Assembly: GCA_015061955.1 (NCBI GenBank)
Contig: SUVO01000001.1
Location: 2,233-66,232 of the forward strand
Origin: Verrucomicrobiaceae bacterium
GTDB taxonomy: Bacteria; Verrucomicrobiota; Verrucomicrobiia; Opitutales; Intestinicryptomonadaceae
Length of the DNA stretch: 64,000 nt
Direction: 5' to 3'
The notes beneath the pieces were generated by a model. That model was given only the letters and a program-made list of their open reading frames with translations. It was not told the origin of the DNA and did no database searches. Made by a program: the position numbers and the translations under genes. How positions within the stretch are numbered: the first letter of the stretch is position 1; each line of letters opens with the position of its first letter. Of the stretch, positions 9,259 to 63,519 are shown in pieces.

Positions 9259-10371
9259 ATGAAAATAAAATCATTTATAATTGGGGCGTTGTCGTTTGTA
9301 GTTGCCTCAACATCGTTTGCACGCGATGTTTGGACAGCCGAAGAAGCAAATGCGTGGTTTGCAAAACAACCATATAGAGCAGGTGTGAACTATATTCCAG
9401 CATATGCAATTAACGCAATAGAAATTTGGCAGAAAGAAACATTCGATATCAAAGTTATCGAAAAGGAGTTTGCCTTAATGCAGTCGATAGGTTTCAACGC
9501 AATTCGTGTGTTCCTTAATGATTTAGTTGTAAATGACGACCCCAAAGGTTTCCTTGAACGCTTCGAGCTTTTCCTCAAGACAGCCGACAAATACGATATT
9601 GGTGTTATGGTTGTATTCTTCACAAATGGAGGTAGAGACGATGCAAAGCTTGGCAAACAACCAGAGCCAAATGGCACTCACAATTCAGGTTGGAAAAAGC
9701 AACCCTCTTATAAAATCTTGGGCGATAGATCGAAATGGGGACACTTAGAAAAATATGTAAGAACAGTTGTTGGTGCTCACGCCAAAGACCCACGCATTAT
9801 TTGTTGGGATATCTTTAATGAACCTGGGAATATTCGTAGTGAACACATCGTTGGTGGTGGAGCAGGGCTTACAAAAGAACGCATAGAGTATTTGCAAGAT
9901 TGCGTTGTAGAAGTCATAAAATTAAGTTCGCAGTGGGCTCGTTCGTACGATCCAATTCAGCCAATTACATATGGTATGTGGGCTCGCTCTCCAGAGTTCA
10001 AAAAGAAGTTCGATAAAGTTCAGTTTGAAAATAGCGACGTTGTTTCGTATCACTCGTACGGAAATCTTCGTGAACAAATACTTCGTCATAAAGAGCTTAA
10101 AAAATTCAATAAGCCGGTATTCTGTAAAGAATGGATGGGCAGAATTTTGGGTAGTACATATAATCCAATATTGCAGTATCATAAGCAAAATAAAATTTGG
10201 TCGTTTGCATTTGGTTTAGTTGCAGGTAAAATGGAAACATGGCGTCCTTGGCCACATCATGATACTCCAGAAACAAAAGGTATATGGTTCCATGATTTGT
10301 ACAAGGCAGACCACACTCCATATTGCCCAGAAGAAATCGAATACATTAAGAGAGTTTTAAAAGATAAATAA
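9259..10371 (+). CDS. secreted clan GH-A (GH5-like) glycoside hydrolase, paralog 1 of 3
   Basis: Signal peptide followed by TIM-barrel motifs: NAIRVFLND, the WDIFNEPGN (NEP) acid/base and a CKEWMG putative nucleophile. About 65-70% identical to the next two ORFs. Confidence 0.55.
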   Translation: MKIKSFIIGALSFVVASTSFARDVWTAEEANAWFAKQPYRAGVNYIPAYAINAIEIWQKETFDIKVIEKEFALMQSIGFNAIRVFLNDLVVNDDPKGFLERFELFLKTADKYDIGVMVVFFTNGGRDDAKLGKQPEPNGTHNSGWKKQPSYKILGDRSKWGHLEKYVRTVVGAHAKDPRIICWDIFNEPGNIRSEHIVGGGAGLTKERIEYLQDCVVEVIKLSSQWARSYDPIQPITYGMWARSPEFKKKFDKVQFENSDVVSYHSYGNLREQILRHKELKKFNKPVFCKEWMGRILGSTYNPILQYHKQNKIWSFAFGLVAGKMETWRPWPHHDTPETKGIWFHDLYKADHTPYCPEEIEYIKRVLKDK

Positions 10372-10388
10372 AATAGAAAGATAAATAT

Positions 10389-11507
10389 ATGAAAATAAAA
10401 TCACTTATAATAGGAGCATTATCGTTGGTGGTTGCCTCAACCACGTTTGCACGCGATGTTTGGACAGCCGAAGAAGCAAATGCATGGTTTGATAAACAGC
10501 CATATAGAGCAGGGGTGAACTATATTCCAGCATACGCAATTAACGCAATAGAAATTTGGCAGAAAGAAACTTTCAATATCGAAGTTATCGAGAAGGAATT
10601 TGCACTCTTGCAAAAAACAGGTTTCAATGCAATTCGTGTGTTCCTTAATGATTTGGTTGTACACGACGACCCTAAAGGCTTCCTAGAACGCTTTGAGCTT
10701 TTCCTCCAAAAAGCTGATAAATACAACATCGGCGTAATGGTAGTTTTCTTCACAAACGGCGGTAAAGACGACGGGAAGTTAGGTAAACAGCCAGAGCCAG
10801 ATGGCACCCACAATTCAGGTTGGAAAAAACAGCCATCGTACTCAATCTTAGGTGATAAATCTAAATGGGGCTACTTAGAATTTTATGTAAAGACTGTCAT
10901 TAAAGCCCACGCAAAAGACCCACGTATTATTTGTTGGGACATCTTCAATGAACCTGGTAATATCACTAGTGTTCATATAGCAGGCGCTGAGAAAGGTTTA
11001 ATTCAAAAGCGAATTGAATATCTTGAAGATTGTTGCTACGACCTCATCAAAGAAAGTGCAAAGTGGGCTCGTTCTCTCGATCCAATTCAGCCAATTACTT
11101 TTGGTGTTCATCGTTATGACCATACGCCATTGGGTAAAAAGCTTAACGATCTTCAATATGCCGAAAGCGATATTATTTCGTATCACTCGTACGCAAATTT
11201 GTTAATTCAAGCAAATTTTGTAAAAAAGTTGAAGAGATTTAACAAACCATTGATGTGTAAAGAATGGATGGGTCGCAATCGTGGTAGTACGATAAATCCA
11301 ATCTTGGGCTTCCATAAGAAGAATAGAATTTGGTCGTTTATGTTCGGTTTTGTTGCTGGCAAAATAGAAACGTGGCGTCCTTGGAAGTTTGATGAAAATC
11401 CTCTCTCATCTGACGTTTGGTTCCACGATTTATATCATGCCGACCACACTCCATATTGCCCAGAAGAAATTGCTTACATCAAGCGTATTTTACAAGATAA
11501 AAAATGA
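10389..11507 (+). CDS. secreted clan GH-A (GH5-like) glycoside hydrolase, paralog 2 of 3
   Basis: Same architecture as 9259-10371. The first ~75 codons are near-identical at the nucleotide level to paralog 1. Confidence 0.55.
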   Translation: MKIKSLIIGALSLVVASTTFARDVWTAEEANAWFDKQPYRAGVNYIPAYAINAIEIWQKETFNIEVIEKEFALLQKTGFNAIRVFLNDLVVHDDPKGFLERFELFLQKADKYNIGVMVVFFTNGGKDDGKLGKQPEPDGTHNSGWKKQPSYSILGDKSKWGYLEFYVKTVIKAHAKDPRIICWDIFNEPGNITSVHIAGAEKGLIQKRIEYLEDCCYDLIKESAKWARSLDPIQPITFGVHRYDHTPLGKKLNDLQYAESDIISYHSYANLLIQANFVKKLKRFNKPLMCKEWMGRNRGSTINPILGFHKKNRIWSFMFGFVAGKIETWRPWKFDENPLSSDVWFHDLYHADHTPYCPEEIAYIKRILQDKK

Positions 11508-12667
11508 AAATAAAATCATTTTTTTTAACATTCATAGCTTGTATTGTTGCAATATCCTCGTTTGCACGCGATATATGGACACCAGAACAAGCAAATGCGT
11601 GGTACGCAAAACAGCCATTTAGAGCTGGTGTAAATTACATTCCATCGTACGCAATAAATACAATCGAAGTTTGGCAGAAAGAAACATTTAAGCTTGATGT
11701 TTTTGAGAAAGAATTTGCATTGATGGAATCAATAGGCTTCAACGCAATTCGTTTGTTCCTCAATGATCTTGTAGTTAATGACGATCCTAAAGGTTTCCTT
11801 GAACGCTTCGAGCAAGTTTTGAAGGCTGCCGATAAGCATGGGATTGGTGTTATGGTCGTATTTTTTACGAACGGAGGTAGAACAGATGGTACGCTTGGAA
11901 AACAACCTGAACCAGATGGAACGCACAATTCAGGTTGGCGTAGACAGCCTGCATATTCTATTCTGCGAGATAAATCGAAGTGGGGACATCTCGAGTTTTA
12001 TGTTAAAACGGTTGTTGGTGCGTATGCAAAAGACCCACGTATTATTTGTTGGGATGTTTTCAATGAACCAGGTAATATAAAAAGCGATCATATTGTAGGA
12101 GGTGGAAAAGGTTTGACAGAAGCAGATATGGAACATCTGCGTCGTTGTAGCCTCGATTTGGTCAGAGAAAGTGCCAAATGGACGCTTTCGTTTGATCCAA
12201 TTCAACCTATTACGTATTGTTTGTGGTCTCGTACACCGAAGGGCTTTGAGAAAGTTCAGATTGAAAATAGCGATATTCTTTCGTTCCATTCCTATGGTGG
12301 CTTAGGTCAACAAGTTCAACGTTATAAAAAACTGAAGAAGCATAATAGACCTGTTTTATGTACGGAATGGTTGGGGCGTTCTACAGGTAGTACGTTTAAT
12401 CCGATTTTAGAATTCCATAAAGACAATAATATATGGTCGTTTGCTTTTGGCTTTGTTGCTGGAAAAATGGAAACGTGGCGTAATTGGCCAGCTATGGACG
12501 ATTCGGAAATTAGAAGCATATGGTTCCACGATTTGTATCGTGCCGACCATACTCCATATTGCCCAGAAGAAATTGCTTACATAAAGCGAATTTTGAAGGG
12601 CGAAAACGCATGCAAAACTCCTTCTAAAAAGAAAAATAAACCACGCAAAGTCGGTAAATACTTCTAA
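11504..12667 (+). CDS. secreted clan GH-A (GH5-like) glycoside hydrolase, paralog 3 of 3, with a basic C-terminal tail
   Basis: Same motifs (WDVFNEPGN, CTEWLGR). Its start overlaps the paralog 2 stop in an ATGA junction. It ends in a Lys/Arg-rich tail (KTPSKKKNKPRKVGKYF). Confidence 0.55.
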   Translation: MKIKSFFLTFIACIVAISSFARDIWTPEQANAWYAKQPFRAGVNYIPSYAINTIEVWQKETFKLDVFEKEFALMESIGFNAIRLFLNDLVVNDDPKGFLERFEQVLKAADKHGIGVMVVFFTNGGRTDGTLGKQPEPDGTHNSGWRRQPAYSILRDKSKWGHLEFYVKTVVGAYAKDPRIICWDVFNEPGNIKSDHIVGGGKGLTEADMEHLRRCSLDLVRESAKWTLSFDPIQPITYCLWSRTPKGFEKVQIENSDILSFHSYGGLGQQVQRYKKLKKHNRPVLCTEWLGRSTGSTFNPILEFHKDNNIWSFAFGFVAGKMETWRNWPAMDDSEIRSIWFHDLYRADHTPYCPEEIAYIKRILKGENACKTPSKKKNKPRKVGKYF

Positions 12668-12794: not shown

Positions 12795-13976
12795 ATGAAA
12801 AAAATTCTTGCATTAGTTTGTGCAACAGCACTATTTACATCGGCATTCGCTTTAAATGTCAGCGAAGATAAAACTATTGTTAATGGTACAGATACCATCA
12901 ACTTTACAGCACCAAATGTTACCCTTACTATTACTGGTAAATTTGATAAGTTGTGGTATTCGCCACGTGCAAATTTTGGTGATGATTATGTATATACCGA
13001 AGGTGACAAAGTTACAGTAAAGTTGGAATATGGCGCATCTCTTGTATTGGATGCTTCTCAAGGGGGCTTGTTTGGTGGTGATTCAGTTTCTACAAGTAAA
13101 GTTGATATGCATATTACTGGTGGTGGTACAATATCTACAACTCTCGAATCTATTACAACTACAAATAATAGAGGGAAACTCTACTTAGACGCATTTACCG
13201 ATTTTACTAATGCCACATATAACATTGGGTCTGCAACACAACCCACAAATCTTACATTATCAAATGCGTTGGTAGTTAACAAACTTACACTTTCAAAAGG
13301 TTCAGTTTTAACAATGTCTTCCGATGATGATTCTTCGGCAGATATTTCTGTTTTAGGTTCTTCATCAACAATCAATGGGAATTTTGTTCAAACTGCAGGT
13401 AGATACGAGGCATTAAATACAACAACAGTTGTAACTGGTACTCTTGATTTGGCTGTTTCAAAAGGTTTTGTATCACGTTGGTTAACTATTGGTAATGGTT
13501 CTACAATTATTATTCGTGCCAATAATGCAATCATGCAGAGCGAAACAGCATATCGTGTTTTTGGTATGTCTAAAGATGCAGTATCAACATTGAAACTTTA
13601 TGCCGATCAACAGTTCGCTGATTTGTGGTTTGATAATGCTAATACTACTGGAACTTTGAATGCTTATACAAATGGCAATGCGCTTACTTTTACTGGTATA
13701 AATTCAACAGGTACTCTCAATATTTTTATTGAAGAAGATTTTTCGTGGGAAAATGATAAAATCCACTTTACAAATGCAACAGTAGAGAGAGTTGTATCAA
13801 TCTTGGGTACAATTACCATTGGTGATACTGTTATTGATAAATCGTTTTGGGATATTGTAAGCGACGGTAATAAAGGTGTATATGTAAACTTGACTCAAGT
13901 TCCAGAGCCAGCCGAATGGGCTCTCATCTTCGGAGCGATAGCACTCGGCTTCATCGCCTATCGTCGCAGAAAGTAA
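12795..13976 (+). CDS. PEP-CTERM sorting-domain surface protein (Thr/Ser/Asn-rich)
   Basis: Signal peptide, then a low-complexity T/S/N/G-rich body likely forming a beta-helix or beta-solenoid. The C-terminus is VPEPAEW-ALIFGAIALGFIAY-RRRK: a canonical PEP motif, TM helix and basic cluster. Confidence 0.7.
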   Translation: MKKILALVCATALFTSAFALNVSEDKTIVNGTDTINFTAPNVTLTITGKFDKLWYSPRANFGDDYVYTEGDKVTVKLEYGASLVLDASQGGLFGGDSVSTSKVDMHITGGGTISTTLESITTTNNRGKLYLDAFTDFTNATYNIGSATQPTNLTLSNALVVNKLTLSKGSVLTMSSDDDSSADISVLGSSSTINGNFVQTAGRYEALNTTTVVTGTLDLAVSKGFVSRWLTIGNGSTIIIRANNAIMQSETAYRVFGMSKDAVSTLKLYADQQFADLWFDNANTTGTLNAYTNGNALTFTGINSTGTLNIFIEEDFSWENDKIHFTNATVERVVSILGTITIGDTVIDKSFWDIVSDGNKGVYVNLTQVPEPAEWALIFGAIALGFIAYRRRK

Positions 13977-14760
13977 AGCAAAACCGTGAGGAGCTTGCTT
14001 TAGTGGTGGTGGTTTTTACTAATAATGAATAAATGCGTTTCTTTAGAAACGCATTTTTTTTATAAATATAACCACCACCAAAGCAAGCAGTTTGATTATT
14101 ATTCGGTTTTATTTCGGACTTACGTACATAGTACGCTACGCCTCATAAAACGCGAATTCTAATGCAAACCTCACGATTTTGTACTTGCAACACGAACCTT
14201 ATTCTAAATCTTAAAACGTGCGAGAGCGCGTTTTCTTTGATGATGAGTTTTAATTTACACTATAAGGAACTTCGATGAAGTGCCTTTTTTTATTAAATAA
14301 ACTCATCAAAGAAAACACTTTACCCTCCATTTTGGTTTTAGCTTCGACTGCAGTGCGTAGCACAGCAACGCTCGCTAAAACGCAAAAGCATCGGGACAAT
14401 CTCGCACGTTTAAAACGTGCGAGGACGGTGTCTCGATTGCGAAAAATATTTATATAGAGATAAGAGCATTCCATTTGGAATGCTCTTTTTGTATAAGATC
14501 GCAATCGAGGCACCTCACAGCTTATGACGCACTTTTGCATCGACTCACGACCAAAGGTCGCTCACGCTCGCAAAAGCGACGTCCTAAGCACGTGCCTCGC
14601 ACGTTTTACTTCTTGCAACCTATGTTGGTTCTAATCTTATGGCTGAATTTTTCTAATAAAAAGTAGAGCCACATGCGAAGCATTGGCGACGGTGCCCAAC
14701 ATATAAAAACACGTTTTACTTCTTGTAACCTATGTTGGTTCTAATGTGTACTATTTTGTA
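13977..14760. repeat. intergenic mosaic of dispersed repeat modules (A, B, A', C, C-partial) at a convergent junction
   Basis: Module A (14213-14316), module B (14323-14411), module A' (14412-14510), module C (14529-14635) and a partial C (14709-14745). Each recurs at 23509-24032 and/or 55283-55810. Confidence 0.7.
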
Positions 14761-14867
14761 AGAGTATAGTGAAGTAATTTTCATTAATTTATAACCATAC
14801 AAATGCTCTATAAACAAAAAAATGCGTATAAAACGCATTTTTTTGGTAAGTTATATAAGTTATATGT

Positions 14868-15770
14868 TTATTGTTTTTTTACAGCTTTATCAGCAATTTT
14901 TTGGAATCGCTTTGCAATGGCATCTTCCATATTATCTGGTATGTATTTTATTTCGGTAGCAGACTTTTTATACAACGTTGCAAACCACACGCATGCTTGC
15001 AGATATTCTCCATATCTATTTAAGTGAATAGTATCGCTATCTATGTACATATAACCTTTTTTTGATTTTCTCCAGTAATATTTACCAACAACATCTCCAG
15101 CTTGTCTTGGCATATCGGGATATTTATACGACTTCAAGTCTGTTGGCACTACAAATGGTTCTTTTATTGCTTTTCTTGCTAATTGAACTGCTCTGCCTGA
15201 ATAGATTTGTTCTAAGCCCAACTTTTCTGCTGCTTCGGCGTAAGCGCTTTCTAATTTATTATACATTTCTTCTTGCGATAATTTCCATTGTTTCAAACGT
15301 GGGCTATCGGCTCTATACGACCACGTTTGTTGAATATATATTTTTGCTGTTGGGCAGTGTTTTTTTACATAATCAACAATATTTTGAGCATATGGAAAGT
15401 ACGATTCTTTTATATAGCTTTTATGGCTGGCTTGCTGAATTGTTACTATATCCCACTTTTTACTTTGTAAGATTTTCTTGAGGGTTGTTGTACCTCCATG
15501 GTAAATTTGTTTACCTTGTTGCTCTTCTTCTGTGATGTATCTCCAGTGGCGATCCAATTCGCAACCACCGAAGTTTGCAAGTTCTAAATCGAGTTTACAA
15601 CCTTCAACCGAGTTTACAACTTTACTAAAGTATGTGTTTAAGCTCCATGTAAAACTATTGCCTATTGTTAGAACTTTCAGTTCTTGAGCAAACGATAGAA
15701 CGCTTGAGCTAATTAAAAATATAAAAAATAATATATAAATTCTGAATGAATGTTTCATATAGTAAGCCAA
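14868..15770 (-). CDS. secreted SGNH/GDSL-like hydrolase (putative esterase)
   Basis: Signal peptide plus a GNSFT block close to the mature N-terminus (TIGNSFTWS), and the size and composition typical of SGNH hydrolases. The assignment is weak. Confidence 0.35.
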   Translation of the reverse strand: MAYYMKHSFRIYILFFIFLISSSVLSFAQELKVLTIGNSFTWSLNTYFSKVVNSVEGCKLDLELANFGGCELDRHWRYITEEEQQGKQIYHGGTTTLKKILQSKKWDIVTIQQASHKSYIKESYFPYAQNIVDYVKKHCPTAKIYIQQTWSYRADSPRLKQWKLSQEEMYNKLESAYAEAAEKLGLEQIYSGRAVQLARKAIKEPFVVPTDLKSYKYPDMPRQAGDVVGKYYWRKSKKGYMYIDSDTIHLNRYGEYLQACVWFATLYKKSATEIKYIPDNMEDAIAKRFQKIADKAVKKQ

Positions 15771-18557: not shown

Positions 18558-21500
18558 TTGAAAGGACTGTTTATGAAAAAAATCTTTTTTACATTATTTG
18601 TTGCATTTGCTACATCGCTTTTTGCAACACAAAGTAATGACATAAAAAGCATTGCTGATAAATTATATTCAAAGAAAGACACGTTTTTAGATACGGTCCT
18701 TCAAACCCGTTCAAATTATGCGTCGTGGTTGAAAGCGCAACCCGACGCAAACGCAAATTTGAAATTTGGCGATTGGTATGTATCGCAAGCGTTGGAACGT
18801 TATCGTAAAAATGCTTTAAAGTTTGCTAATCCACAAGAAAATGGTATCGATTTAAAAGCCATTTATGGCAGAGAACCTCTTTGGCGTAAGTATGATATCA
18901 AAGATGGAACATTATTCCCATTGTGTTCTACAAATCATCGTTTGTTGCAAACTTGTATAGCTTATGTGGCTCGTGAAATTACTGCCGATGCCGATACTAA
19001 ATTTTCTTTTACAGTTGGTGCTAGAACAAGTAATGTTATAGATGTATTGCTAAATGGTAAATTTTTGAAAACTATCAAAACTGGCGATGCACAATCGTTT
19101 GAAGTCCCACTAAAAAAGGGTAAAAATATTCTTTCGTTTACTATAAAATATTTGGGTAGAATGAATGAAGATGCATTCTACTTTGTGCCATATACTGATC
19201 CAGCAGTAGAACTTACTGCAAAATTGAGAAAAGATTTCCCAACTTTTTATAACGCCTTAACTTCAATGCGTTATTATTATGCCGAAACTCCAGCTTTGTT
19301 GCCTTTCGATTGGTTTGTTGCCAAAGATAATTCGGTTTCGCACAAAGATGTAATTCAGGGTATGATTGAACATTCGCTATTTTCGGCTGGTAAGTTGGAA
19401 GAACGTTTCAAGAAAATTAAAGACGATACATCTGAAAATGCGTCGGTTGAACGTATAAAGCTTTTGGCAGATGGATTTGCTATCTTGTGTGTAGAGCGCG
19501 AGTTTGGTTATTGCATTAAGAATGTAAGATCTGCAATGGAAGATATCAAAAAAACTTACCCAGATTACGATAAAGACGGAAAACTTTTTGCAGAGCTTGC
19601 CGATTGGGAAAAACGTATGCCAGCTCTCTACAATAGCGTTCTTGAAGATGTAAAATTAAATAAACAATCGTCTTTTGCCGAAGCTAAAAAGTTTAATTCT
19701 TTTGCAACAAAGGCATTGCTTGCAAATCCACTTTTAAAGCAGTATCCACAGTGGGTTATGATTAAGCGTGATAAGGGTTCAAGTCGTTTAGGATTGCCAC
19801 AAAATTGGCAAGGTAATTCTACCTTAGCATGTAATCCTTGGTCTTCTAATAATAAGAGACAACCGAAAGTTTGTGCAACTTATAAAGATGAAATTTACAA
19901 GTTCGATATCACAAAACCACAAGAAAAACAGTTGTTGTTTAAGCCTGCAAAAAACAACATCATTTGCGATTTAGATATATCATTCGATGGTAAGAAAATT
20001 TTGTATTCTACCTTAGACGATAAAATGTATTTCCGCATGGACGAACTCGATACCACATCGGGCAAGACAAAAACTATAACGCCAACAATGCACGAGAAAA
20101 TAGATTATTACGATGGTATTTATTTGCCAGATGATCGCATTTTGTTCTGTTCAACTGCGTGTTGGGTGGGTGTTCCTTGTGTGTCGGGTACAGACTCGGT
20201 TGCAAACCTTTATGTAATGGATCCAAATGCAGGTGATGAAAAAGCTGTTGATGAATCTATACGTCAGCTCACTTTCGAGCAAGATGCCGACTGGATGCCT
20301 GTGTTGATGGAAAATGGCAGAATTATGTATACTCGTTGGGAGTACGTTGACAACTCGCACTATTTCTCGCGTATTCTAATGCATATGAATCCTGATGGCA
20401 CTGCACAATCGTCGTTGTATGGTTCTGTTAGTTATTGGCCAAATTCGCTCTTTTACGCACGTCAAATTCCGAACGACCCAAATAAATTTGTTGGTATTGT
20501 ATCGGGGCACCATGGCGTAGCTCGCACAGGTGAGCTTCATTTGTTCGACATTTCTAAAGGAACAAAAGAAGAACAGGGCAGAGTACATCAGTATCCTTCG
20601 CATGGTCGTAAATATGTTGCAGAAACTAAAGACGAACTTGTGCGTGGTAAATTCCCTCAGATTATCCATCCGTATCCTCTTTCAGAAAAATATATTGTTG
20701 CATCGGTACGTCATCACTTGGCAAATCGTATTGGTTTTGCAGTTTGTTTGATTGATAAATTTGACAACATAATAACATTGCAATCGTTTGACGATAATCA
20801 TCATGCTTTCGAGCCATTGCCATTGCAAGCTCGCCAAAAGCCTGTTGAAATTGCCGATAAAACAAATCCAGATTTAGATTATGGCCATGTGTTCCTTAAC
20901 GATATTTATCAGGGAGATGGCTTGAAAGATGTACCTCGCGGAACTGTAAAATCTTTGAGAATTTTGGAATACCATTATGCTTATCGCGATATGGGTTCGC
21001 ATGCTGTAATTGGTAATGAAGGCTCGTGGGACGTAAAACGTATTCATGGTACTGTTCCAGTTCTTGAAGATGGTTCGGCTATGTTCAAAGTTCCAGCAAA
21101 TCGTCCACTTGCACTTCAACCTTTAGACAAAGATGGTAAGGCATTAGCTTTAATGCGTACATGGTTTACTGTAATGCCTGGTGAAGTTCAAAGTTGTGTA
21201 GGTTGCCACGAAGGACAAGGTATGTCGCCAACTTCAAAGCCTGCATTGGCTTCTCGTAAGGCTCCAACAAAAATTAAACCATTTGTTGCTGGTGTGCGTG
21301 GTTATTCGTTCCATAGAGATGTTCAACCTGTTCTCGATAAATATTGCGTAGGTTGTCATAATGGTGGAAATGAAAAATTACCAAACTTTAAGCGTGGCGT
21401 ACGGGGTTATGCACACTTCCCTAAAGCATACTTAGACTTGGCTAAATTTGTGCGTCGCTCTGGTCCAGAATGTAATCAGAATATGCTTACACCTATGGAA

Positions 21501-22811
21501 TTTAATGCCGACACAAGCGAGCTTATTCATATTTTGAAAAAAGGTCATAAAGGAGTAAAGCTTGATGATCAATCTATGAAAATCCTCATTACATGGATTG
21601 ATATGAACGTCCCATGTTTTGGTACTTGGAAAGAAATAAAAGCAGATATTCCACACAATGGCGATGTAATGCGCAGAAAGTACCTTGCTAAATATGCAAA
21701 TCGTCATGAAGACCAAGATGCAATTACATACGATGGTGGTGTTCAAGAATTTGTTGCACCTGCTCAAGCTAAGAAGCATCCACAGAAAAACCTTAAGGCT
21801 GATAATTTCCCATTCGATAGTGCTACAGCTAAGAAAATGATTGAAAACACAGCTGTAAAAGCTGAAGGCTTTACCGGATTATTTGGTGCTAAGAAAAAAT
21901 TACCATCCGAAATTGAATGCGATGTTGATGGCGTGAAAATGCGTTTTGTACTCGTGCCAGCTGGTAGTTTTGTAATGGGTTCAAATCGTGGTTATTACGA
22001 TGAAGGTCCAGCAAAGATTGTACGTGTTGAAAAACCTTTCTATATGAGTCAGTTTGAAGTGTCGAATTTGCAGTACGCTAAGTTCGATGCCTCGCACAAC
22101 TCTGGATATCACGATAGACAATGGAAAGACCATGTAAATCGTGGCTACATTGCAAACAATCCAAATCAACCAGTTGTTCGTGTAAACTGGAATCAGGCAA
22201 ACGCATATGCAAGATGGTTGTCAGAAAAGGTTGGTGTTAAAGTTTCGTTACCTACCGAAAAACAATGGGAATGGGCTGCACGTGCTGGTACATCGGGCGA
22301 CTTCTGGTTTGGTAAACTCGGTAAAAATTATGGCGATTGCGAAAATTTAGCCGACTTTACTATTCGCAATTTTGCTGTTAATGGGGTAAATCCTAAACCT
22401 CGTGCCGACGAAAGCCCTCTAAACGCTTATACTCCACGCGACGACTTTGCTAACGACGGTCAGCTGGTAGGTTGTGATGTAGGTATGTTTAAACCTAACG
22501 CTTTCGGTTTGTACGATATGCTTGGTAATGTTTCAGAATGGACTGCCGACGATTTCAGCGAAACTCTTTTCGGCAAAAAACTTCAAGACAAAAAAGCAGT
22601 TCGCGGTGGTTCGTGGCGCGATAGAGCTAAACGCAGTAGAGTTACAATGCGTCGCGACTATTACTCTTGGCAGAAAGTTTACAATGTAGGTATTCGCCTC
22701 GTTATTGACGATGTTGAAACTGCAGCAAAAACTTTCGAAACTGCTAAAAAACTCCCAGAATATATCGAACGCGACATTTCTGTGAAAGTCGATAACGTTC
22801 CACACGATTAA
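18558..22811 (+). CDS. large secreted multidomain protein with PSCyt-like CxxCH motifs and a C-terminal FGE-sulfatase-like domain
   Basis: 1417 aa with a signal peptide. Two CxxCH motifs (CVGCHEG at nt 21195-21209; PVLDKYCVGCHNGG at nt 21345-21359) sit in a Planctomycete-cytochrome-c-like context. The C-terminal ~290 aa match the FGE-sulfatase fold (NWNQANAYARWL, YDMLGNVSEWT, RGGSWRD). TTG start at 18558 with an aggagagg RBS; the ATG at 18573 is an alternative. Confidence 0.6.
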   Translation: MKGLFMKKIFFTLFVAFATSLFATQSNDIKSIADKLYSKKDTFLDTVLQTRSNYASWLKAQPDANANLKFGDWYVSQALERYRKNALKFANPQENGIDLKAIYGREPLWRKYDIKDGTLFPLCSTNHRLLQTCIAYVAREITADADTKFSFTVGARTSNVIDVLLNGKFLKTIKTGDAQSFEVPLKKGKNILSFTIKYLGRMNEDAFYFVPYTDPAVELTAKLRKDFPTFYNALTSMRYYYAETPALLPFDWFVAKDNSVSHKDVIQGMIEHSLFSAGKLEERFKKIKDDTSENASVERIKLLADGFAILCVEREFGYCIKNVRSAMEDIKKTYPDYDKDGKLFAELADWEKRMPALYNSVLEDVKLNKQSSFAEAKKFNSFATKALLANPLLKQYPQWVMIKRDKGSSRLGLPQNWQGNSTLACNPWSSNNKRQPKVCATYKDEIYKFDITKPQEKQLLFKPAKNNIICDLDISFDGKKILYSTLDDKMYFRMDELDTTSGKTKTITPTMHEKIDYYDGIYLPDDRILFCSTACWVGVPCVSGTDSVANLYVMDPNAGDEKAVDESIRQLTFEQDADWMPVLMENGRIMYTRWEYVDNSHYFSRILMHMNPDGTAQSSLYGSVSYWPNSLFYARQIPNDPNKFVGIVSGHHGVARTGELHLFDISKGTKEEQGRVHQYPSHGRKYVAETKDELVRGKFPQIIHPYPLSEKYIVASVRHHLANRIGFAVCLIDKFDNIITLQSFDDNHHAFEPLPLQARQKPVEIADKTNPDLDYGHVFLNDIYQGDGLKDVPRGTVKSLRILEYHYAYRDMGSHAVIGNEGSWDVKRIHGTVPVLEDGSAMFKVPANRPLALQPLDKDGKALALMRTWFTVMPGEVQSCVGCHEGQGMSPTSKPALASRKAPTKIKPFVAGVRGYSFHRDVQPVLDKYCVGCHNGGNEKLPNFKRGVRGYAHFPKAYLDLAKFVRRSGPECNQNMLTPMEFNADTSELIHILKKGHKGVKLDDQSMKILITWIDMNVPCFGTWKEIKADIPHNGDVMRRKYLAKYANRHEDQDAITYDGGVQEFVAPAQAKKHPQKNLKADNFPFDSATAKKMIENTAVKAEGFTGLFGAKKKLPSEIECDVDGVKMRFVLVPAGSFVMGSNRGYYDEGPAKIVRVEKPFYMSQFEVSNLQYAKFDASHNSGYHDRQWKDHVNRGYIANNPNQPVVRVNWNQANAYARWLSEKVGVKVSLPTEKQWEWAARAGTSGDFWFGKLGKNYGDCENLADFTIRNFAVNGVNPKPRADESPLNAYTPRDDFANDGQLVGCDVGMFKPNAFGLYDMLGNVSEWTADDFSETLFGKKLQDKKAVRGGSWRDRAKRSRVTMRRDYYSWQKVYNVGIRLVIDDVETAAKTFETAKKLPEYIERDISVKVDNVPHD

Positions 22812-22835: not shown

Positions 22836-23510
22836 ATGAAAAAATTACTTGCAACTATTATATCAATCGTAACACTATTGTTTCTTGGTGCATGTTCTTC
22901 ATGCCCAAAAGGCGAATGTTGCTTTAAATCTCAACCAAAATTAACAAAAGATATGTTTTACAAAGATGGTAAATTCGATCAAGATGCTGCCAAGCAAGCA
23001 TACTTCGATATGATGGAAAAACTCGGTTATCCAATCAGCGATAATCTTCGCAAAAATATGTGGGTAACAGACTTCGCTTTAGGCGATTTTCCTAACGTAG
23101 GTATGGCTGGTATATTTTGGGCTCATGAAAACAAAAATGGCGTTTTTGGTCACGAAATTATCTTATTGCCTAACCAAATGCTCGTTGAACACTGGCACGT
23201 TGCCGGCTTAGGTTTGCCTGCTAAAAACGAATGCTGGCAGGCTCGTGCAGGTAAAACTTACTGCTTTGGGGAAGAGGGCGAAGATGCTTCTAAATATCCA
23301 AACGTAAAAGTTCCAGAAAGCCAGAAGAAATTTATTACTGTAAATAAAGTTGCATGTGCTGATGCTAAAGAAGGTAATGTTGTATGGCTCAATCGCTTAG
23401 AAGCACGTCATTATCAGATTGCTGGTCCAGAAGGTGCAGTTGTAACTGAATATGGTGCATTCCACAGCAACGACAACAATCGCTTCACCAACCCAAAGGT
23501 CGGCTTCTAA
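22836..23510 (+). CDS. hypothetical lipoprotein (224 aa)
   Basis: Lipobox LGACSS after the signal peptide. A His-rich block (HENKNGVFGHEIILLPNQMLVEHWH) hints at a metal-binding or cupin-like fold, but no family could be confirmed. Confidence 0.35.
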   Translation: MKKLLATIISIVTLLFLGACSSCPKGECCFKSQPKLTKDMFYKDGKFDQDAAKQAYFDMMEKLGYPISDNLRKNMWVTDFALGDFPNVGMAGIFWAHENKNGVFGHEIILLPNQMLVEHWHVAGLGLPAKNECWQARAGKTYCFGEEGEDASKYPNVKVPESQKKFITVNKVACADAKEGNVVWLNRLEARHYQIAGPEGAVVTEYGAFHSNDNNRFTNPKVGF

Positions 23511-24032
23511 AACGTGCGAGAGCGCGTTTTCTTTGATGATGAGTTTTTATTTACACTATAAGGCACTTCGTTGAAGTGCCTTTTTTTATTAAATAAACTC
23601 ATCAAAGAAAACGCTTTCGGCTGTTATTTGGTTTCGTATCGCCTCACGTACATAGTACGCTACGGCTCACAAAACACAAATTCCAGCTCGAATCTCGCAC
23701 GTTTTACTTCTTCCAACACATGTCGGTTCTAAACTGATTTTATTTAACCACATTCTCTTTGATGATGAGTTTTTATTTACACTATAAGGCACTTTGATGA
23801 AGTGCCTTTTTTATTAAATAAACTCATCAAATAAAACGCTTTGCCCTCCATTTTGGTTTTAGCTTCGACTGCAGTGCATAGCACAGCAATGCTCGCTAAA
23901 ACGCAAAAGCATCGGGACAATCTCGCACGTTTTTTTATTTCCGTTCCTAAGTTTATCCTAATCCGATTTAGTTAGGCAAAGAAGCTATTGCGAAGCAATC
24001 TTCGCCACTTCTCAACATACAAAAACACGTTT
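23509..24032. repeat. intergenic mosaic of repeat modules (A, E, C-tail, A, B, F) at a convergent junction
   Basis: Module A at 23509-23613 and again at 23753-23838. Module B at 23844-23931. Module F at 23932-24032, shared with 55684-55775. The E and C-tail segments at 23614-23735 are shared with 14120-14165 and 14600-14635. Confidence 0.7.
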
Positions 24033-24290
24033 TTAAGAGAGGAGTTTTATTCGCACATCTGCACAATTTGAAATTTCAACAAGCTTATCGCGAGAGGTTT
24101 CGCCAGTACATATTTCTATATCGTTGCGAGATATTCCCAATTTTTTAGCTAAAAATTTAATGAGTTCGGTATTCGCTTTTCCGTCCATTGCTTGAGCGGC
24201 AATCTTTATTTTTATCGCATCACCGTACTCGCCAACGCACTCGCTTTTGGGGGCGTTTGGAACTACTCGAATTTTTATACGTTCAGCCAT
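24033..24290 (-). CDS. DUF167/YggU-family protein (UPF0235)
   Basis: 85 aa. The blocks VVPNAPKSE...DGKAN and LIKFLAKKLGISR, and the overall length, are characteristic of YggU. Confidence 0.65.
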   Translation of the reverse strand: MAERIKIRVVPNAPKSECVGEYGDAIKIKIAAQAMDGKANTELIKFLAKKLGISRNDIEICTGETSRDKLVEISNCADVRIKLLS

Positions 24291-40103: not shown

Positions 40104-40132
40104 AAAAGGCAATTTTTAATTGCCTTTTTTTG
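40104..40132 (+). terminator. terminator after the TPR gene
   Basis: aaggcaatt, loop ttt, aattgcctt, then TTTTTTT. Confidence 0.6.
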
Positions 40133-40177
40133 TAGATAAACATAGTTACAAATTTATAACAGAATATATATAAAAAT

Positions 40178-40590: not shown

Positions 40591-41001
40591 TTACATTTCC
40601 ATAAAAATTAAAACAGCAAATGCAACACAAACTGCAGCTACAGCAAAATCTATAGCCATCGACAACGCACTCGACGATTCTTCTTGAACAGCTACTGGTG
40701 CCGATGCAACAGGGCTTACTCGTGGAGCTGCTACAACTGGCTTGGGAGCGTTAGGCAAAACTGTCTTAGGTGCTTCAGGCAAGATTGTTTTGGGAGCCTC
40801 AGGAAGTATTGTCTTAGGTGCTTCTGGTAAAATTGTTTTAGGCGCCTCAGGCAAGATTGTCTTAGGAGCTTCTGGAAGCACGGTTTTAGGTGCCTCAGGC
40901 AAAACTGTTTTAGGAGCTTCTGGAAGCACGGTTTTAGGCGCCTCAGGCAAAACTGTTTTAGGAGCCTCTGGTAAAATTGGGGTTGGGTTTTGATCTGACA
41001 T
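40591..41001 (-). CDS. tail-anchored proline-rich tandem-repeat protein (LPEAPKT[VI] x9 plus one degenerate unit)
   Basis: The N-terminus is MSDQNPTPI, followed by nine LPEAPKT[VI] units, one LPNAPKPV unit and a C-terminal hydrophobic helix (AIDFAVAAVCVAFAVLIFMEM). It is encoded by a 24-nt period array on the minus strand at about 40745-40985. Confidence 0.6.
   Translation of the reverse strand: MSDQNPTPILPEAPKTVLPEAPKTVLPEAPKTVLPEAPKTVLPEAPKTILPEAPKTILPEAPKTILPEAPKTILPEAPKTVLPNAPKPVVAAPRVSPVASAPVAVQEESSSALSMAIDFAVAAVCVAFAVLIFMEM
40745..40985 (-). repeat. 24-bp coding tandem repeat array, about 10 units
   Basis: The units differ at synonymous positions, yet the encoded peptide repeat is nearly perfect. 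Confidence 0.8.
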
Positions 41002-41100
41002 AATAACTTATAATTTAAATTTAATGTTAAAAATGTAATGTAGTTAGAAGTCAGTATTTCATATCTATTTTATTTTTCAAGCTTTTTTGTGTTGATAATA

Positions 41101-48134: not shown

Positions 48135-48150
48135 TTTTTTTATAAAAAAT

Positions 48151-48185
48151 AAAAGCAGTGTAAGAAAAAATACACTGCTTTTTTG
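48151..48185. terminator. hairpin terminator between guaB (+) and holA (-)
   Basis: aagcagtgta, loop agaaaaaa, tacactgctt, then TTTTT. A-rich on the other side, so possibly bidirectional. Confidence 0.55.
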
Positions 48186-53015: not shown

Positions 53016-55283
53016 ATGATTACATCAATAATAACAACAATGTCTGAATCGGCTATGATGTCGGCAACAGTTAATCCAGCGTTTTGGTTAGTTCCAATCG
53101 CTTCAGTAGTAGCGTTAGTTTTTGCGCTATTATTTTATAAAGGAATGAAGTCGGAAGAAGAAGGAACCGACATCATGAAAAAAATTGCCTTACACGTACG
53201 TCAAGGTGCATTGGCATATTTAAAACAACAATACAAAATAGTTGCTTGTGTATTTGTTGCTTTATTTCTCTTCTTTGCTTTTTTGGCATATGGCTTAGGT
53301 GTGCAGAACGAATGGGTACCGTTTGCTTTTATAACTGGTGGCTTTTTCTCTGGTTTGGCTGGGTTCTTTGGTATGAAAACTGCAACCTATGCATCGAATC
53401 GTGCTGCATATGCCGCTAAGAATTCCCTCGACCACGGATTGCGTGTTGCGTTTCGTTCTGGTGCAGTTATGGGGCTTGTCGTGGTGGGCTTAGCTTTGCT
53501 CGACATTTCTATTTGGTTTGTAATTCTAAACTATTTTATTGAAGATGCAAATCCAGCACATAAGATGATTATCATAACCACTACAATGCTCACTTTTGGT
53601 ATGGGGGCTAGTTTGCAAGCTTTGTTTGCTCGTGTTGGTGGTGGTATTTTCACAAAGGCTGCCGACGTAGGTGCAGACCTTGTTGGAAAAGTTGAAGCTG
53701 GAATCCCAGAAGACGATCCTCGCAATCCTGCTACTATTGCCGACAACGTAGGCGACAACGTAGGCGACGTTGCTGGTATGGGCGCTGACTTGTACGAATC
53801 GTACTGTGGCTCTATCTTAGCAACAGCTGCATTAGGTGCTGCTGCTTATATGACTAACGTTGATGTACAGATGAAAGCTGTGTTAGCGCCTATGATTATT
53901 GGTGCTATTGGTGTTGTGCTTTCTATTGTTGGTATTTACTTTGTACGCGTAAAACCTGGTGCCGACAGCAAACAACTTTTAGGTGCTTTAGGTAAGGGTG
54001 TAAATGCTAGTTCTATTTTAATTGCCATTGTTTCTGCTTTGATTTTATGGCAACTCGGTATGCCAAACTGGCTTGGCAACTGGGCTTCTATTATTACAGG
54101 TTTGATAACTGGTATTTTCATTGGCAAAATTACCGAGTACTATACTTCAGAAGCTTACTCGCCAACTCGTGGTATTGCCGAACAAGCAAAAACTGGTCCA
54201 GCAACTGTAATTATTGCTGGTATGGGTACTGGTATGATTTCTACATTCTATCCAGTTATGGCTATTGTTGTTGGTACTGCATTAGCATTTATTTTCTCAG
54301 CAGGTGGCGATTTCTCAAATATGTCGGAAGGTCTTTATGGCATAGGTATTGCTGCTGTTGGTATGTTATCAACTTTAGGCATTACTTTGGCTACGGATGC
54401 TTACGGCCCAATTGCTGACAATGCTGGTGGGAATGCAGAAATGTCGGGCTTGGGAAAAGAAGTTCGTCGTCGCACCGATATGCTCGATTCTCTCGGTAAT
54501 ACTACTGCCGCAACTGGCAAGGGTTTTGCTATTGGGTCGGCAGCATTGACTGCTCTTGCTCTATTGGCTTCGTATGTTGAAGAGCTTCGCATTGGTTTAG
54601 TTCGCATAAAGGGCAATGCAAACATTTCTGAATACGCTTCTTCTATCTTAGAAAAATTTGAGAAAGTTGGTGGTGTTCAAAACGCTTCACTACTCGATTT
54701 TATGAACATTTACGGCGTAAACTTGATGAATCCAAAAGTTCTTTTGGGTATGTTCATTGGTTCGATGATGTCGTTCCTTTTCTGTGGTCTTACAATGAAT
54801 GCTGTCGGACGCGCTGCCAACCAAATGGTAAACGAAGTTCGTCGTCAATTCCGTGAAAATCTCGGCATTATGCAAGGTACTTCTGATCCAGACTATGCTC
54901 GTTGTGTAGAAATTTCTACCAAGGCTGCTCAAAAAGAAATGCTTTTCCCTTCGTTATTAGCTGTTGCAACTCCTGTTATTACTGGATTAGTTTTTGGCGT
55001 AACTGGTGTTTTAGGACTCCTCGGTGGTGCTTTAGCTTCGGGGTTTGTTTTAGCTATATTTATGGCAAACAGTGGTGGTGCTTGGGACAACGCCAAGAAA
55101 TACATTGAACAAGACAATTTTGGAGGGAAAGGCTCTGAAGCCCACAAAGCTGCCGTTATTGGCGACACTGTTGGCGATCCATTCAAAGACACATCTGGTC
55201 CATCTTTGAACATTCTCATAAAGCTTATGAGCATGGTAGCCATTGTTATGGCAGGTGTAACGGTATCATTCTCTCTCCTTTAA
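53016..55283 (+). CDS. hppA: membrane-bound H+/Na+-translocating pyrophosphatase
   Basis: Signature motifs [20 protein letters not shown] and [17 protein letters not shown], and about 16 TM helices. The start is set at MITSII (53016). Confidence 0.9.
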
Positions 55284-55810
55284 AAAAACGTGTGTGGACG
55301 CACCACGAGGGCAATATTTTTTATTATAATGATGAAAGGCAATTCTTCGGAATTGCCTTTTTTTGTATTAGCTTGCCCTCGTGGTGCTTGTAGCTAAAAA
55401 CGCACTTTTGCATCGACTCACGACCACAGGTCGCTCACGCTCGCAAAAGCACGTTTTTAGCAGACACCACACACGTTTTTTGTTTCTGTTTCTTACGTTG
55501 ATTCTAATCTGAGGGCAATATTTTTTATTATAATGATGAAAGGCAATTCTTAGAATTGCCTTTTTTTGTATTTAAATTCGCAAAGTGGTGCTTGTAGCTA
55601 AAAACGCACTTTTGTATCGACTCACGACCAAAGGTCGCTCACGCTCGCAAAAGCAACGTTCTAAGCACATGTCTCTCACGTTTTTTATTTCCGTTTCTAA
55701 GTTGGTTCTAATTTGATATAGTTAGACAAAGAAGCTATTGCAAAGCAATCTTCGCCATTTCCCAACATATAATAAAAAGTTTGCCCTCGTGGTGCTTGTA
55801 GCTAAAAATG
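55283..55810. repeat. intergenic mosaic of repeat modules (D, C, D, C, F, D-tail) at a convergent junction
   Basis: Module D at 55300-55400 and 55511-55606. Module C at 55402-55508 and 55607-55715. Module F at 55716-55775. D-tail at 55779-55808. A 14-bp inverted repeat aaaaacgtgtgtgg / ccacacacgttttt at 55285-55298 and 55470-55483 brackets the first D+C unit. Confidence 0.7.
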
Positions 55811-55818
55811 AACAATTT

Positions 55819-63237: not shown

Positions 63238-63519
63238 TCAATTTTCAACATTTCTACGAACACGAGGGATTTTATCGTAGAACTTGCCAGCTCTGTCGAT
63301 AATATTGAACAGGTTTTTAGCAACCTTGCGAATCGATTCTAACAATTCGAGGTACAAAATACCAATTTCAGGGCGACATGTACCCGAATTTACACGCGAA
63401 ACGTGTTCGGCTTCAACATTGTTTATTTTTTCAGTTGCTATAAAAATATAGGCAACAATCAGAATTGCCGCAGAAAATGTAACGGCATTCATTTTTACAT
63501 ATTCTAAAAAAAAATCCAT
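63238..63519 (-). CDS. chimeric small ORF: new TM N-terminus fused to a duplicated C-terminal 61 aa of the Na/Pi cotransporter
   Basis: nt 63241-63425 are 100% identical to 61394-61578. The encoded NNVEAEHVSRV...RVRRNVEN is identical to the cotransporter C-terminus. The N-terminal 32 aa (MDFFLEYVKMNAVTFSAAILIVAYIFIATEKI) are unique and hydrophobic. Confidence 0.4.
   Translation of the reverse strand: MDFFLEYVKMNAVTFSAAILIVAYIFIATEKINNVEAEHVSRVNSGTCRPEIGILYLELLESIRKVAKNLFNIIDRAGKFYDKIPRVRRNVEN

Follow-up and report, generated by a model that had tools for sequence, protein, structure and literature searches.

Three intergenic intervals, 13977-14760, 23509-24032 and 55283-55810, in a 64,000-nucleotide (nt) stretch of a Verrucomicrobiaceae bacterium contig (SUVO01000001.1; the whole stretch is hereafter the window) hold arrays of one family of repeated, non-coding units. 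The first array lies between a PEP-CTERM-type gene and a gene read as SGNH, the second between a lipoprotein gene and yggU, and the third between hppA and a glycoside hydrolase gene. A preliminary description, made by a model from the sequence, had given these flanks and had claimed that such arrays occupy every large convergent junction. The window has six convergent junctions, and the arrays are in the three largest (891, 522 and 535 bp), as claimed; the remaining three measure 55-153 bp and carry plain terminators. The gene context also stands, with some caveats about names. Pfam backs YggU (DUF167) and the H+-PPase and arabinofuranosidase-type assignments beside the third array, but for the gene read as SGNH the match is DUF4886, and Pfam gives none for the PEP-CTERM and lipoprotein genes. 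Downstream of the first array, 65 nt of unique spacer and a native bidirectional terminator (14816-14844) are kept.

The three intervals are linked by self-BLASTN against the whole window, with E values down to 1e-84, and the sharing of repeats among them is real and well beyond chance. Segment 14055-14411 matches 23581-23932 at 80.6% over 360 nt (E 1e-84), 55307-55512 matches 55511-55716 at 87% (E 3e-65), 14519-14635 matches 55596-55712 at 84% (E 3e-30), and 23921-24032 matches 55672-55782 at 85% (E 9e-30). A repeat-family listing of the window also groups the array segments (families D6, D8, D10-D12, D14 and D20). The short inverted terminal sequence AAACGTGCGAG or its complement, allowing at most one mismatch, is found where it had been reported, at eight sites within the arrays (14214, 14401, 14413, 14596, 23510, 23694, 23922 and 55673). 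A single further near-match in the window, at 25506 within a gene, is probably due to chance.

The natural unit is about 195-205 nt long, counted from inverted repeat to inverted repeat. Its terminal inverted repeats span 11-15 bp, with (T)AAAACGTGCGAG at the left end and CTCGCACGTTTT(A) at the right end, and the canonical inverted repeat is identical in genomes of 37%, 43% and 52-53% GC. Each unit consists of one "A/D-type" and one "B/C/E-type" palindrome, each 60-100 nt long. The letters are those of the preliminary description, which had proposed freely shuffled modules A to F of 40-110 bp; this scheme is not upheld, as the natural unit is about 200 nt and recombination and nesting fit the mosaic better. 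Five full units (U0, U1, U2, U3 and U5) and two units without a left end (U4 and U6) are present in the window. Most right ends then carry a conserved tail of about 30 nt (ACTTCTTGCAACCTATGTTGGTTCTAAT; core ..TATGTTGGTTCTAAT..). A window scan for the tail core with up to 2 mismatches finds it within the arrays only and on the + strand in every case; indeed, all units and tails in each window array lie on the + strand. F modules are composed of the tail, a short hairpin and then CCCAACATATAAAAACACGTTTT, and they end in a short palindrome, AAAAACACGTTTT. Neither tails nor F modules are significantly structured (z -0.4 to -2.2).

Only short, non-conserved open reading frames (ORFs) overlap the units. 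Small called ORFs inside arrays include a 64-amino-acid (aa) "gene" at 15349-15543 of locus L030, another stretch from the same species, and a 96-aa ORF at 14250-14540 of the window (- strand). No conservation between copies is seen for these ORFs, which are probably spurious.

Folded singly, all eight units (8 of 8) adopt the same Y-shaped three-way junction as their minimum-free-energy structure. A 12-bp stem between the end repeats closes the junction. Both arms are palindromes: the first is long, contains an AT-rich internal loop and is tipped by a GC hairpin with a T-run, while the second has an internal loop that is conserved (motifs ..TCGACTCACG.. / ..GCTCACGCTC..) and a small inner hairpin. 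Free energies of full units range from -70 to -99 kcal/mol, and the four units tested against dinucleotide shuffles have z values of -8.3 to -13.5. Mean column identity over the eight units is 60%, and first-arm sequences are essentially unalignable between units.

A covariance model made from the eight units recovered 16 units or part-units, which are the basis of the covariation figures. Among these 16, 89.4% of cells at modelled pairs can pair, compared with about 40% after the partners have been shifted by 1-3 columns, and two-sided changes occur in 19 of the 33 modelled pairs. Covariation scores 0.334 in the real alignment and 0.119 in shuffles, none of which scored as high (0 of 500); because the 16-unit alignment was fitted to the model, all of these figures lean towards the structure. 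Independent support points the same way. The end repeats co-change within units: U5 has AAACGTGTGTGG/CCACACACGTTT, U0 shows the same 2-nt loss in both arms, the unit after rplS in L030 has AAACAATGGGCGAGA/TCTCGCCCATTGTTT, and a unit at position 220 of locus L013 behaves likewise. In addition, the orthologous unit after hppA in locus L017, where hppA is 96% identical, keeps its fold by compensatory changes, with the outer stem maintained through an A-T to T-A swap and a different tip hairpin.

The pairs are almost all Watson-Crick. Out of about 73 pairs, 0-4 are G-U on the + strand and 2-5 on the - strand, and the - strand folds equally well or slightly better than the + strand. One-sided changes are rare, with 10 cells in the 16-unit alignment changed on one side compared with 71 changed on both. 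For these reasons, we read the palindromy as a property of the DNA or as maintained by a DNA process. The tip hairpin with its T-run is the only clear RNA-level feature of the unit.

A consensus scan marks terminator-like hairpins followed by T-runs on the + strand at 14031-14056, 14462-14487, 23560-23582, 23786-23808, 55334-55361 and 55538-55564, and an equivalent hairpin at 14264-14291 was identified by eye. The three intervals contain 5, 4 and 2 terminator-like sites, respectively, compared with 1.0, 0.4 and 0.7 in shuffles. The unit terminators are all on the + strand, with the U0 tip flagged on the - strand as well. A terminator had been proposed for each module; the hairpin and T-run sites are real, but they are confined to the first palindrome of each unit. 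The tips share one form, namely an A-tract, an 8-12 bp GC-containing hairpin with a 3-4 nt loop, and a run of 5-8 T directly after the hairpin, as in the consensus, and they are oriented in the direction of the upstream gene. Ordinary intrinsic (Rho-independent) terminators have the same form, stand-alone examples in the window being 14816-14844, 40105-40134 and 48150-48184. In contrast to these, the terminator of the unit is wrapped in about 170 nt of extra conserved, repeated and structured sequence. The idea of a "wrapped native terminator", in which palindromes extend around a local terminator, was rejected because the outer stems are common to different loci.

The only BLASTN match beyond the three intervals is a 33-nt likeness between a terminator hairpin of the arrays and the stand-alone terminator at 40105-40134, which follows a TPR gene. 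It has 87-88% identity over 33-38 nt to D-type tips (55335-55367 and 55539-55576), and the likeness may have come about by exchange of unit tips with ordinary terminators or by convergence. Neither strand of the arrays showed a promoter-like site in the scan. A promoter role for the tail was considered and rejected, as no sigma-70-like site occurs on either strand, and sigma-54 and Bacteroidetes-type motifs misfit by eye.

The most distinctive feature of the family, absent from the preliminary description, is the position of the first unit. This unit adjoins the TAA stop codon of a gene, and has the same orientation as that gene, at about 10 of 11 gene ends. The A-run of the repeat continues directly from the TAA at the lipoprotein gene (TAAaacgtgcgag) and hppA (TAAaaaaacgtgtgtgg) in the window, at the hppA orthologue in L017 (TAAaaaacgggtgtgg), at a gene in L002 (TAAaacgtgcgag), at the left gene of L012 (TAAaaaacgtgcgag), at citrate synthase in L013 (TAAaaaaacgtgcgag) and in L012 (TAAaatgtgtgtag; a partial unit on the - strand), at rplS in L030 (TAAacaatgggcgag) and at a gene in L034 (TAAaaaacgtgcgag). 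At the PEP-CTERM-type gene, a 3-nt spacer separates the TAA from the first unit, and on a contig of Candidatus Merdousia sp. the reading frame enters the unit by six codons before its stop. The C-terminal length of hppA matches that of relatives without the unit. The rplS gene is two codons shorter than in unit-free relatives, which indicates that the repeat itself supplies the TAA. The L012 junction contains two opposed units, each matching its own gene; orientation thus follows the gene and not the direction of replication. The family had also been tied to bidirectional termination zones, a restriction contradicted by units outside convergent junctions: in L020 upstream of a + strand gene, at L013:6334 between same-strand genes, and at L013:220 by a start codon.

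Fold, terminator and orientation together raise the question of whether the unit works as RNA. It might be a structured element of the 3' untranslated region that stabilises mRNA, forms a duplex for RNase III, or stalls or senses the terminating ribosome; selection on the RNA fold, not mobility, would then account for the covariation. Strong covariation, very stable folds, units that start at the stop codon in the orientation of the upstream gene, and the conserved fold at the orthologous hppA site would all suit such a role. We nevertheless regard it as unlikely. A transcript stopped by the internal terminator would lack the 3' halves of the first palindrome, second palindrome and closing stem, so that the Y shape would be possible only in read-through transcripts. 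Few G-U pairs on either strand are unusual for selected RNA helices, and the - strand folds as well or better. Moreover, the family is patchy in close relatives and variable between strains, and it has neither an Rfam match nor a promoter-like site.

The stop-codon abutment bears on how the units may arrive. Selection alone should permit insertion anywhere from the stop codon to the native terminator, yet the distances peak at zero; although both ends of the element merge into A/T runs and no empty site was recovered at strain level, this suggests a target preference that includes the sense-strand TAA. It is possible, though doubtful, that a structure-recognising enzyme inserts the elements site- and strand-specifically at TAA stop codons. 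Such an enzyme could be an HUH-type single-strand DNA transposase or a recombinase reading the Y-shaped DNA and the tail. If this were true, the element would replace the stop codon and terminator of a gene in one step, and "stop-codon-homing portable terminators" would be a distinct class, not ordinary MITEs (miniature transposable elements with inverted repeats) sorted by selection. A mechanistic origin of the abutment would represent a targeting mode not described for bacterial MITEs and a natural system for wholesale replacement of gene 3' ends.

A more specific version of single-strand movement derives the unit from transposons of the IS200/IS605 or REP/RAYT type, with a Y1 HUH enzyme; REP stands for repetitive extragenic palindrome. 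The palindromes would be hairpins recognised by the enzyme in single-stranded DNA, and insertion 3' of a strand-specific target including TAA would explain both the zero distance and the fixed orientation. Several observations agree with this derivation, including the almost exclusively Watson-Crick palindromes, the asymmetry of an element with a one-sided tail, the strand-specific placement, at about 10 gene ends, immediately 3' of TAA, and the lack of a visible target-site duplication. Furthermore, Opitutus terrae, of the same phylum, is REP-rich (PMC3733652). The derivation is improbable, however, given that no Y1 transposase, RAYT or TnpB gene occurs in any sequence examined, with RAYT absent from about 85 kb of the species, and that no GTAG or CGTC tag stands beside a 20-40 bp REP hairpin. 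IS200/IS605 elements are without terminal inverted repeats, whereas the ends here are complementary and covarying, and the opposed L012 units each match their own gene and not the direction of replication.

The family extends beyond the window. In about 85 kb of the species, five arrays are known: the three of the window, one at L020:1-230, located 2.2 kb upstream of the window, and one at L030:15292-15689, after rplS. Units are present in at least three other organisms and in other genera, for example after citrate synthase in L013 (52% GC), and confinement of the modules to the window, which would have counted against the preliminary description, does not hold. A scan of genome, metagenome and viral sequence collections for the two exact end repeats placed 160-190 nt apart gave one genome match (the Candidatus Merdousia sp. 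noted above; Opitutales, 53% GC), four metagenome matches and no match among viral contigs. Two metagenome matches are relevant, namely L012, which is near the window species, and L013. The other two, L014 and L015 (54% and 63% GC), were rejected as members; they are unrelated long perfect palindromes that contain the 11-mer and may be assembly fold-backs. The low yield of the exact scan is as expected, since short-read contigs of this species nearly always stop 100-165 bp into an array.

Some relatives lack the unit. The window hppA is identical to a protein labelled "MAG: Verrucomicrobiaceae bacterium" at NCBI. Its relatives at 85% identity include Coraliomargarita sp. CAG:312, and in relatives at 89% and 84% identity hppA is followed by no unit and has a plain terminator instead. 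The same is true of rplS in relatives. Twenty loci of two related species, 271 kb in all, yielded no unit with the covariance model. Among relatives, the family thus has the patchiness of mobile repeats. A different element of about 290 bp, with inverted repeats AATGAATAATGAAAAATGAATAAT, lies at L039:4015-4501 and L041:3895-4501 in a related species (54% GC). Some strains have it and L038 does not, and its orientation in L039 is opposite to that in L041. This relative, which is without the family studied here, seems to harbour an unrelated MITE family.

Strains also differ at the arrays. In the U3/U4 region, where the window has two units, locus L008 has one fused unit. From 14447 rightwards, another strain matches the window at 99.87% identity; leftwards of this position it differs, with other units, another upstream gene and an rpsP-trmD-rplS neighbourhood. 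A different genome region is thus joined at the first array, which makes the array a synteny breakpoint. In a third variant, two insertions, one of them an F-type body, are nested in the palindromes of a U2-like unit. Some units are hybrids, with left and right repeats of different types or with an outer stem and a tip of different types. Breakpoints fall inside shared palindromic segments, and the mosaic is consequently best explained by recombination and nesting among units. The region joined to the first array in another strain also includes L030:~11750-12000, which ends ...GGGGTTCAACTCCCCTCACCTCCA on the opposite strand and, from its sequence, looks like a transfer-messenger RNA (tmRNA; ssrA) gene.

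A breakpoint of this kind could also be expected of recombination-site arrays, integron attC-like or Xer/dif, with crossover at CTCGCACGTTT|AAAACGTGCGAG and with units as empty "cassettes". The head-to-tail units with a common palindromic junction, the fold bounded by inverse core-like repeats, and a strain difference in gene content exactly at an array are compatible with such sites. All the same, this account is highly improbable. The unit ends, AAAACGTG.../...CACGTTTT, misfit the attC consensus (RYYYAAC / GTTRRRY), and the dif-like 11-6-11 layout misfits as well (both by eye), dif-like consensus sites being absent. No integrase was found with Pfam, no integrase or recombinase gene lies nearby, and the units are without an ORF. 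Finally, the arrays are scattered behind housekeeping genes (hppA, rplS and citrate synthase) and not collected on one platform. Both integron attC and Xer/dif sites were accordingly rejected.

Taken together, the units are best read as a lineage-restricted, non-coding and non-autonomous family of MITEs or small interspersed repeats of gut Opitutales (Verrucomicrobiota) that act as portable terminators, a reading to which we assign a probability of roughly 0.6. It builds on the observed repetition, anatomy, structural covariation, non-coding nature, position, orientation, patchiness and strain polymorphism, and it adds transposition by an enzyme supplied in trans, a targeting rule and real termination at the tips, which we infer. 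Several attributes of MITEs are present, as the units are non-coding, 195-205 nt long (MITEs measure roughly 50-500 bp), flanked by terminal inverted repeats, and dispersed in copies with presence/absence differences. An enzyme acting in trans would move the units of about 200 nt. Since the element brings a stop codon and a terminator with it, copies that insert at a gene's TAA and share the orientation of the gene would be tolerated or favoured. The terminator of the element would end the upstream transcript about 50-60 nt past the stop, and further copies would accumulate behind the first. Recombination at shared palindromes would then shuffle, truncate and fuse units and would occasionally rearrange the chromosome.

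Several points weigh against a terminator-bearing MITE family. No autonomous partner or mobilising enzyme was found in the sequences examined; with Pfam, no transposase, integrase or reverse transcriptase was detected in the 38 window ORFs and nine neighbouring-locus proteins. Both ends of the element run into A/T homopolymers, so that no target-site duplication can be defined; TA, TAA and TTAA are readable at some copies but not at all. No filled and empty pair was recovered at strain level, and the rplS and hppA comparisons of filled and empty sites are between species only; transposition is accordingly a deduction. The oriented, near-exclusive TAA abutment is left unexplained by TA- or TTAA-targeting transposition, which is orientation-blind. 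The sole clear exception to the rule of placement is L013:220-428, an antisense unit located 13 nt from a start codon. The Y shape with a covarying closing stem is untypical of a MITE derived from insertion-sequence ends. In addition, terminators were assigned by a consensus scan, and the copy counts cover about 85 kb of the species.

The first array begins with U0 (13980..14180, + strand), which starts 3 nt past the TAA (13974-13976) of the PEP-CTERM-type gene. Its variant repeats, aaaaccgtgagg / cctcacgatttt, have lost the same 2 nt in both arms; it folds at -76.1 kcal/mol (z -9.3) and matches the model with 143 bits. The tip of its first palindrome (14031..14064, +) is an 11-bp hairpin followed by a T-run, terminator-like and flagged on the - strand as well. 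A divergent tail copy, gtacttgcaacacgaaccttattctaaatctt (14181..14212, +), was read by eye against the other tails. U1 (14213..14411, +; modules A and B of the preliminary description) has canonical repeats, a fold z of -8.3 and a model score of 167.6 bits, and it is 82% identical to 23508-23704. Its tip hairpin and T-run (14264..14291, +; aaggaacttcgatgaagtgcctt ttttt) were found by eye and are paired in the U1 fold. U2 (14412..14607, +; modules A' and C) directly abuts U1, producing a 23-bp palindrome, ctcgcacgtttaaaacgtgcgag, at the junction. It folds at -98.8 kcal/mol (z -13.5), has a 96% identical copy in L012, and carries a tip hairpin and T-run at 14462..14492 (+; terminator scan). An F-type module follows (14608..14717, +; z -1.75), with the tail acttcttgcaacctatgttggttctaatctt, a short hairpin body and then cccaacatataaaaacacgtttt. 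The array ends with a second exact copy of the tail core (14718..14748, +; 0 mismatches), 97% identical to 14600-14635. The order A-B-A'-C given earlier for this interval thus corresponds to U1 and U2, but the interval also holds the divergent unit at 13980-14180 and the F-type module at 14608-14717.

In the second array, the left repeat of U3 (23509..23705, +; A and E) overlaps the TAA of the upstream gene (23508-23510). U3 matches the model with 200 bits, and the terminator scan places its tip hairpin and T-run at 23560..23589 (+). A tail, its core with 2 mismatches, and a linker (23706..23754, +) lead to U4 (23755..23936, +; A and B), which is without its left repeat, has an intact right repeat, and scores 86.6 bits. 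The U4 tip hairpin and T-run are at 23786..23814 (+; terminator scan). The F-type module that closes the array (23937..24034, +) has an end, aaaaacacgttttt, that overlaps the yggU stop (24033-24035, - strand), and the 85% match of 23921-24032 to 55672-55782 covers this module.

The third array starts with U5 (55285..55481, +; D and C), which begins in the A-run directly 3' of the hppA TAA (55281-55283). Its variant repeats, aaaacgtgtgtgg / ccacacacgtttt, carry two compensatory changes; the fold is -92.4 kcal/mol (z -11.1), the model match 173 bits, and the orthologous copy is in L017. The tip hairpin and T-run (55334..55368, +; terminator scan) and a tail (55482..55510, +; core with 2 mismatches) follow. 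U6 (55511..55686, +; D and C) is without a left repeat, is 87% identical to U5, and scores 107 bits, with its tip hairpin and T-run at 55538..55571 (+; terminator scan). The array continues with an F-type module of tail and hairpin body (55687..55778, +; tail core with 1 mismatch) and an orphan 3' arm of a D-type palindrome (55779..55813, +), which is 97% identical to 55370-55400 and ends 5 nt short of the stop of the - strand glycoside hydrolase gene.

Other features of the window were recorded in passing. Just upstream of the first array, 9259-12667 holds three tandem paralogous genes (370, 372 and 387 aa; period of about 1115-1130 bp, 66-88% DNA identity) with weak Glyco_hydro_2_C and Cellulase/GH5 matches, which looks like a local gene triplication. 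The gene at 18558-22811, directly upstream of the small lipoprotein gene preceding the second array, encodes a 1417-aa protein with a hydrazine-synthase-alpha middle domain and an FGE-sulfatase domain. A 24-nt tandem repeat of at least 9 copies (40718-41003) lies inside a 136-aa ORF (40591-41001, - strand) that has no Pfam match, adjoins thioredoxin, and would encode a low-complexity protein of 8-residue repeats. A 192-nt direct duplication (61394-61585 and 63241-63432; 98% identity) takes in the 3' end of the Na/Pi cotransporter gene. Close to its second copy, contigs from other strains come to an end, and the genes there are different in strain L027.

The family is of practical relevance. 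It explains why short-read assemblies of common uncultured gut Verrucomicrobiota break after particular genes, and it marks where these genomes rearrange. With a covariance model of the unit, annotators could also mask spurious small ORFs in the arrays, for example the 64-aa "gene" of L030. Searches against known families found none that includes it. Rfam gave no match at gathering thresholds over the window, with chance sub-threshold hairpins at permissive settings, ARAGORN found no tRNA or tmRNA in the window, and BLASTN of a unit with its tail against plasmid and phage records returned nothing similar. No description of such repeats in Verrucomicrobia was found in the literature, in which the inverted-repeat string occurs only in human p27 primers. 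As had been suggested, the family is apparently undescribed, although it belongs to a known kind, the small mobile repeats.

Some further readings were tried and set aside. Retron msr-msd RNA is similar in outline, but there is no adjacent reverse transcriptase, and the units are multi-copy, tandem and equipped with an internal terminator co-oriented with genes. For the tail, a tRNA T-arm (GGTTCTAATCC) was rejected since pairing is possible in some copies only and ARAGORN was negative. CTTG and GTTC in the tail recall IS91-type targets, probably by coincidence.

Among known systems, classical MITEs (Correia/NEMIS, ERIC, RUP and QMITE; PMC2229807; PMC10969869) resemble the family in size, terminal inverted repeats, AT-richness and stable folds. 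They likewise occur as dispersed, non-coding copies that are patchy among relatives and affect neighbouring transcripts. However, classical MITEs are usually one long hairpin derived from insertion-sequence ends, with a target duplication (TA in Correia and RUP), and, unlike the present family, they insert independently of stop codon and gene orientation. The REPs, their mosaic clusters (bacterial interspersed mosaic elements, BIMEs) and the RAYT-mobilised REPINs (PMC3733652) share extragenic palindromes, mosaic clusters after genes and DNA-level palindromy with the units, and both have been proposed to function in termination or mRNA stability. In contrast to the present units of about 200 nt in one orientation, REPs measure 20-40 bp and bear an unpaired tag, GTAG or CGTC, and their orientation alternates in BIMEs (PMC3733652). 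In the units, GTAG or ATAG occurs in the loop of the second arm's inner hairpin and not as a 5' tag. The units had been described as REP/BIME- or MITE-like; the MITE or small-interspersed-repeat kind is retained, whereas strict REP/BIME was rejected on size, tag and alternating orientation, with no RAYT seen.

BOX elements of Streptococcus pneumoniae (boxA-boxB(n)-boxC; PMC3049150) are the best analogue for modular, nested arrays, as both have variable module numbers, ends that pair in the predicted fold, mutual insertion and intergenic clusters. BOX is assembled from distinct modules, A-B(n)-C, without a built-in terminator, whereas here the whole Y-shaped unit repeats and units exchange. The best functional analogue is SPRITE, also of S. 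pneumoniae, a terminator-like repeat with AAAA/TTTT ends whose transposase and target duplication are unknown (PMC3049150; PMC10969869). Like the present element, SPRITE (PMC3049150) is small, AT-rich and non-coding, with AAAA.../...TTTT ends and a stem followed by a T-rich, terminator-like tract, and both families are enriched near gene 3' ends and between convergent genes. SPRITE was set apart by its description, a sequence relationship not being expected across phyla. It consists of a single 18-bp duplex and a T-tract, in contrast to the three-way junction, closing stem, second palindrome and tail of the present element, which, unlike SPRITE, lies directly against the stop codon and is arranged in tandem mosaic arrays. 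The occurrence of a terminator-carrying repeat in a phylum far from that of pneumococcal SPRITE suggests that portable terminators arise repeatedly. Within this company, the present family is distinct in four ways: its three-way junction with a covarying stem, its second palindrome, its one-sided tail, and its oriented abutment to the stop codon.

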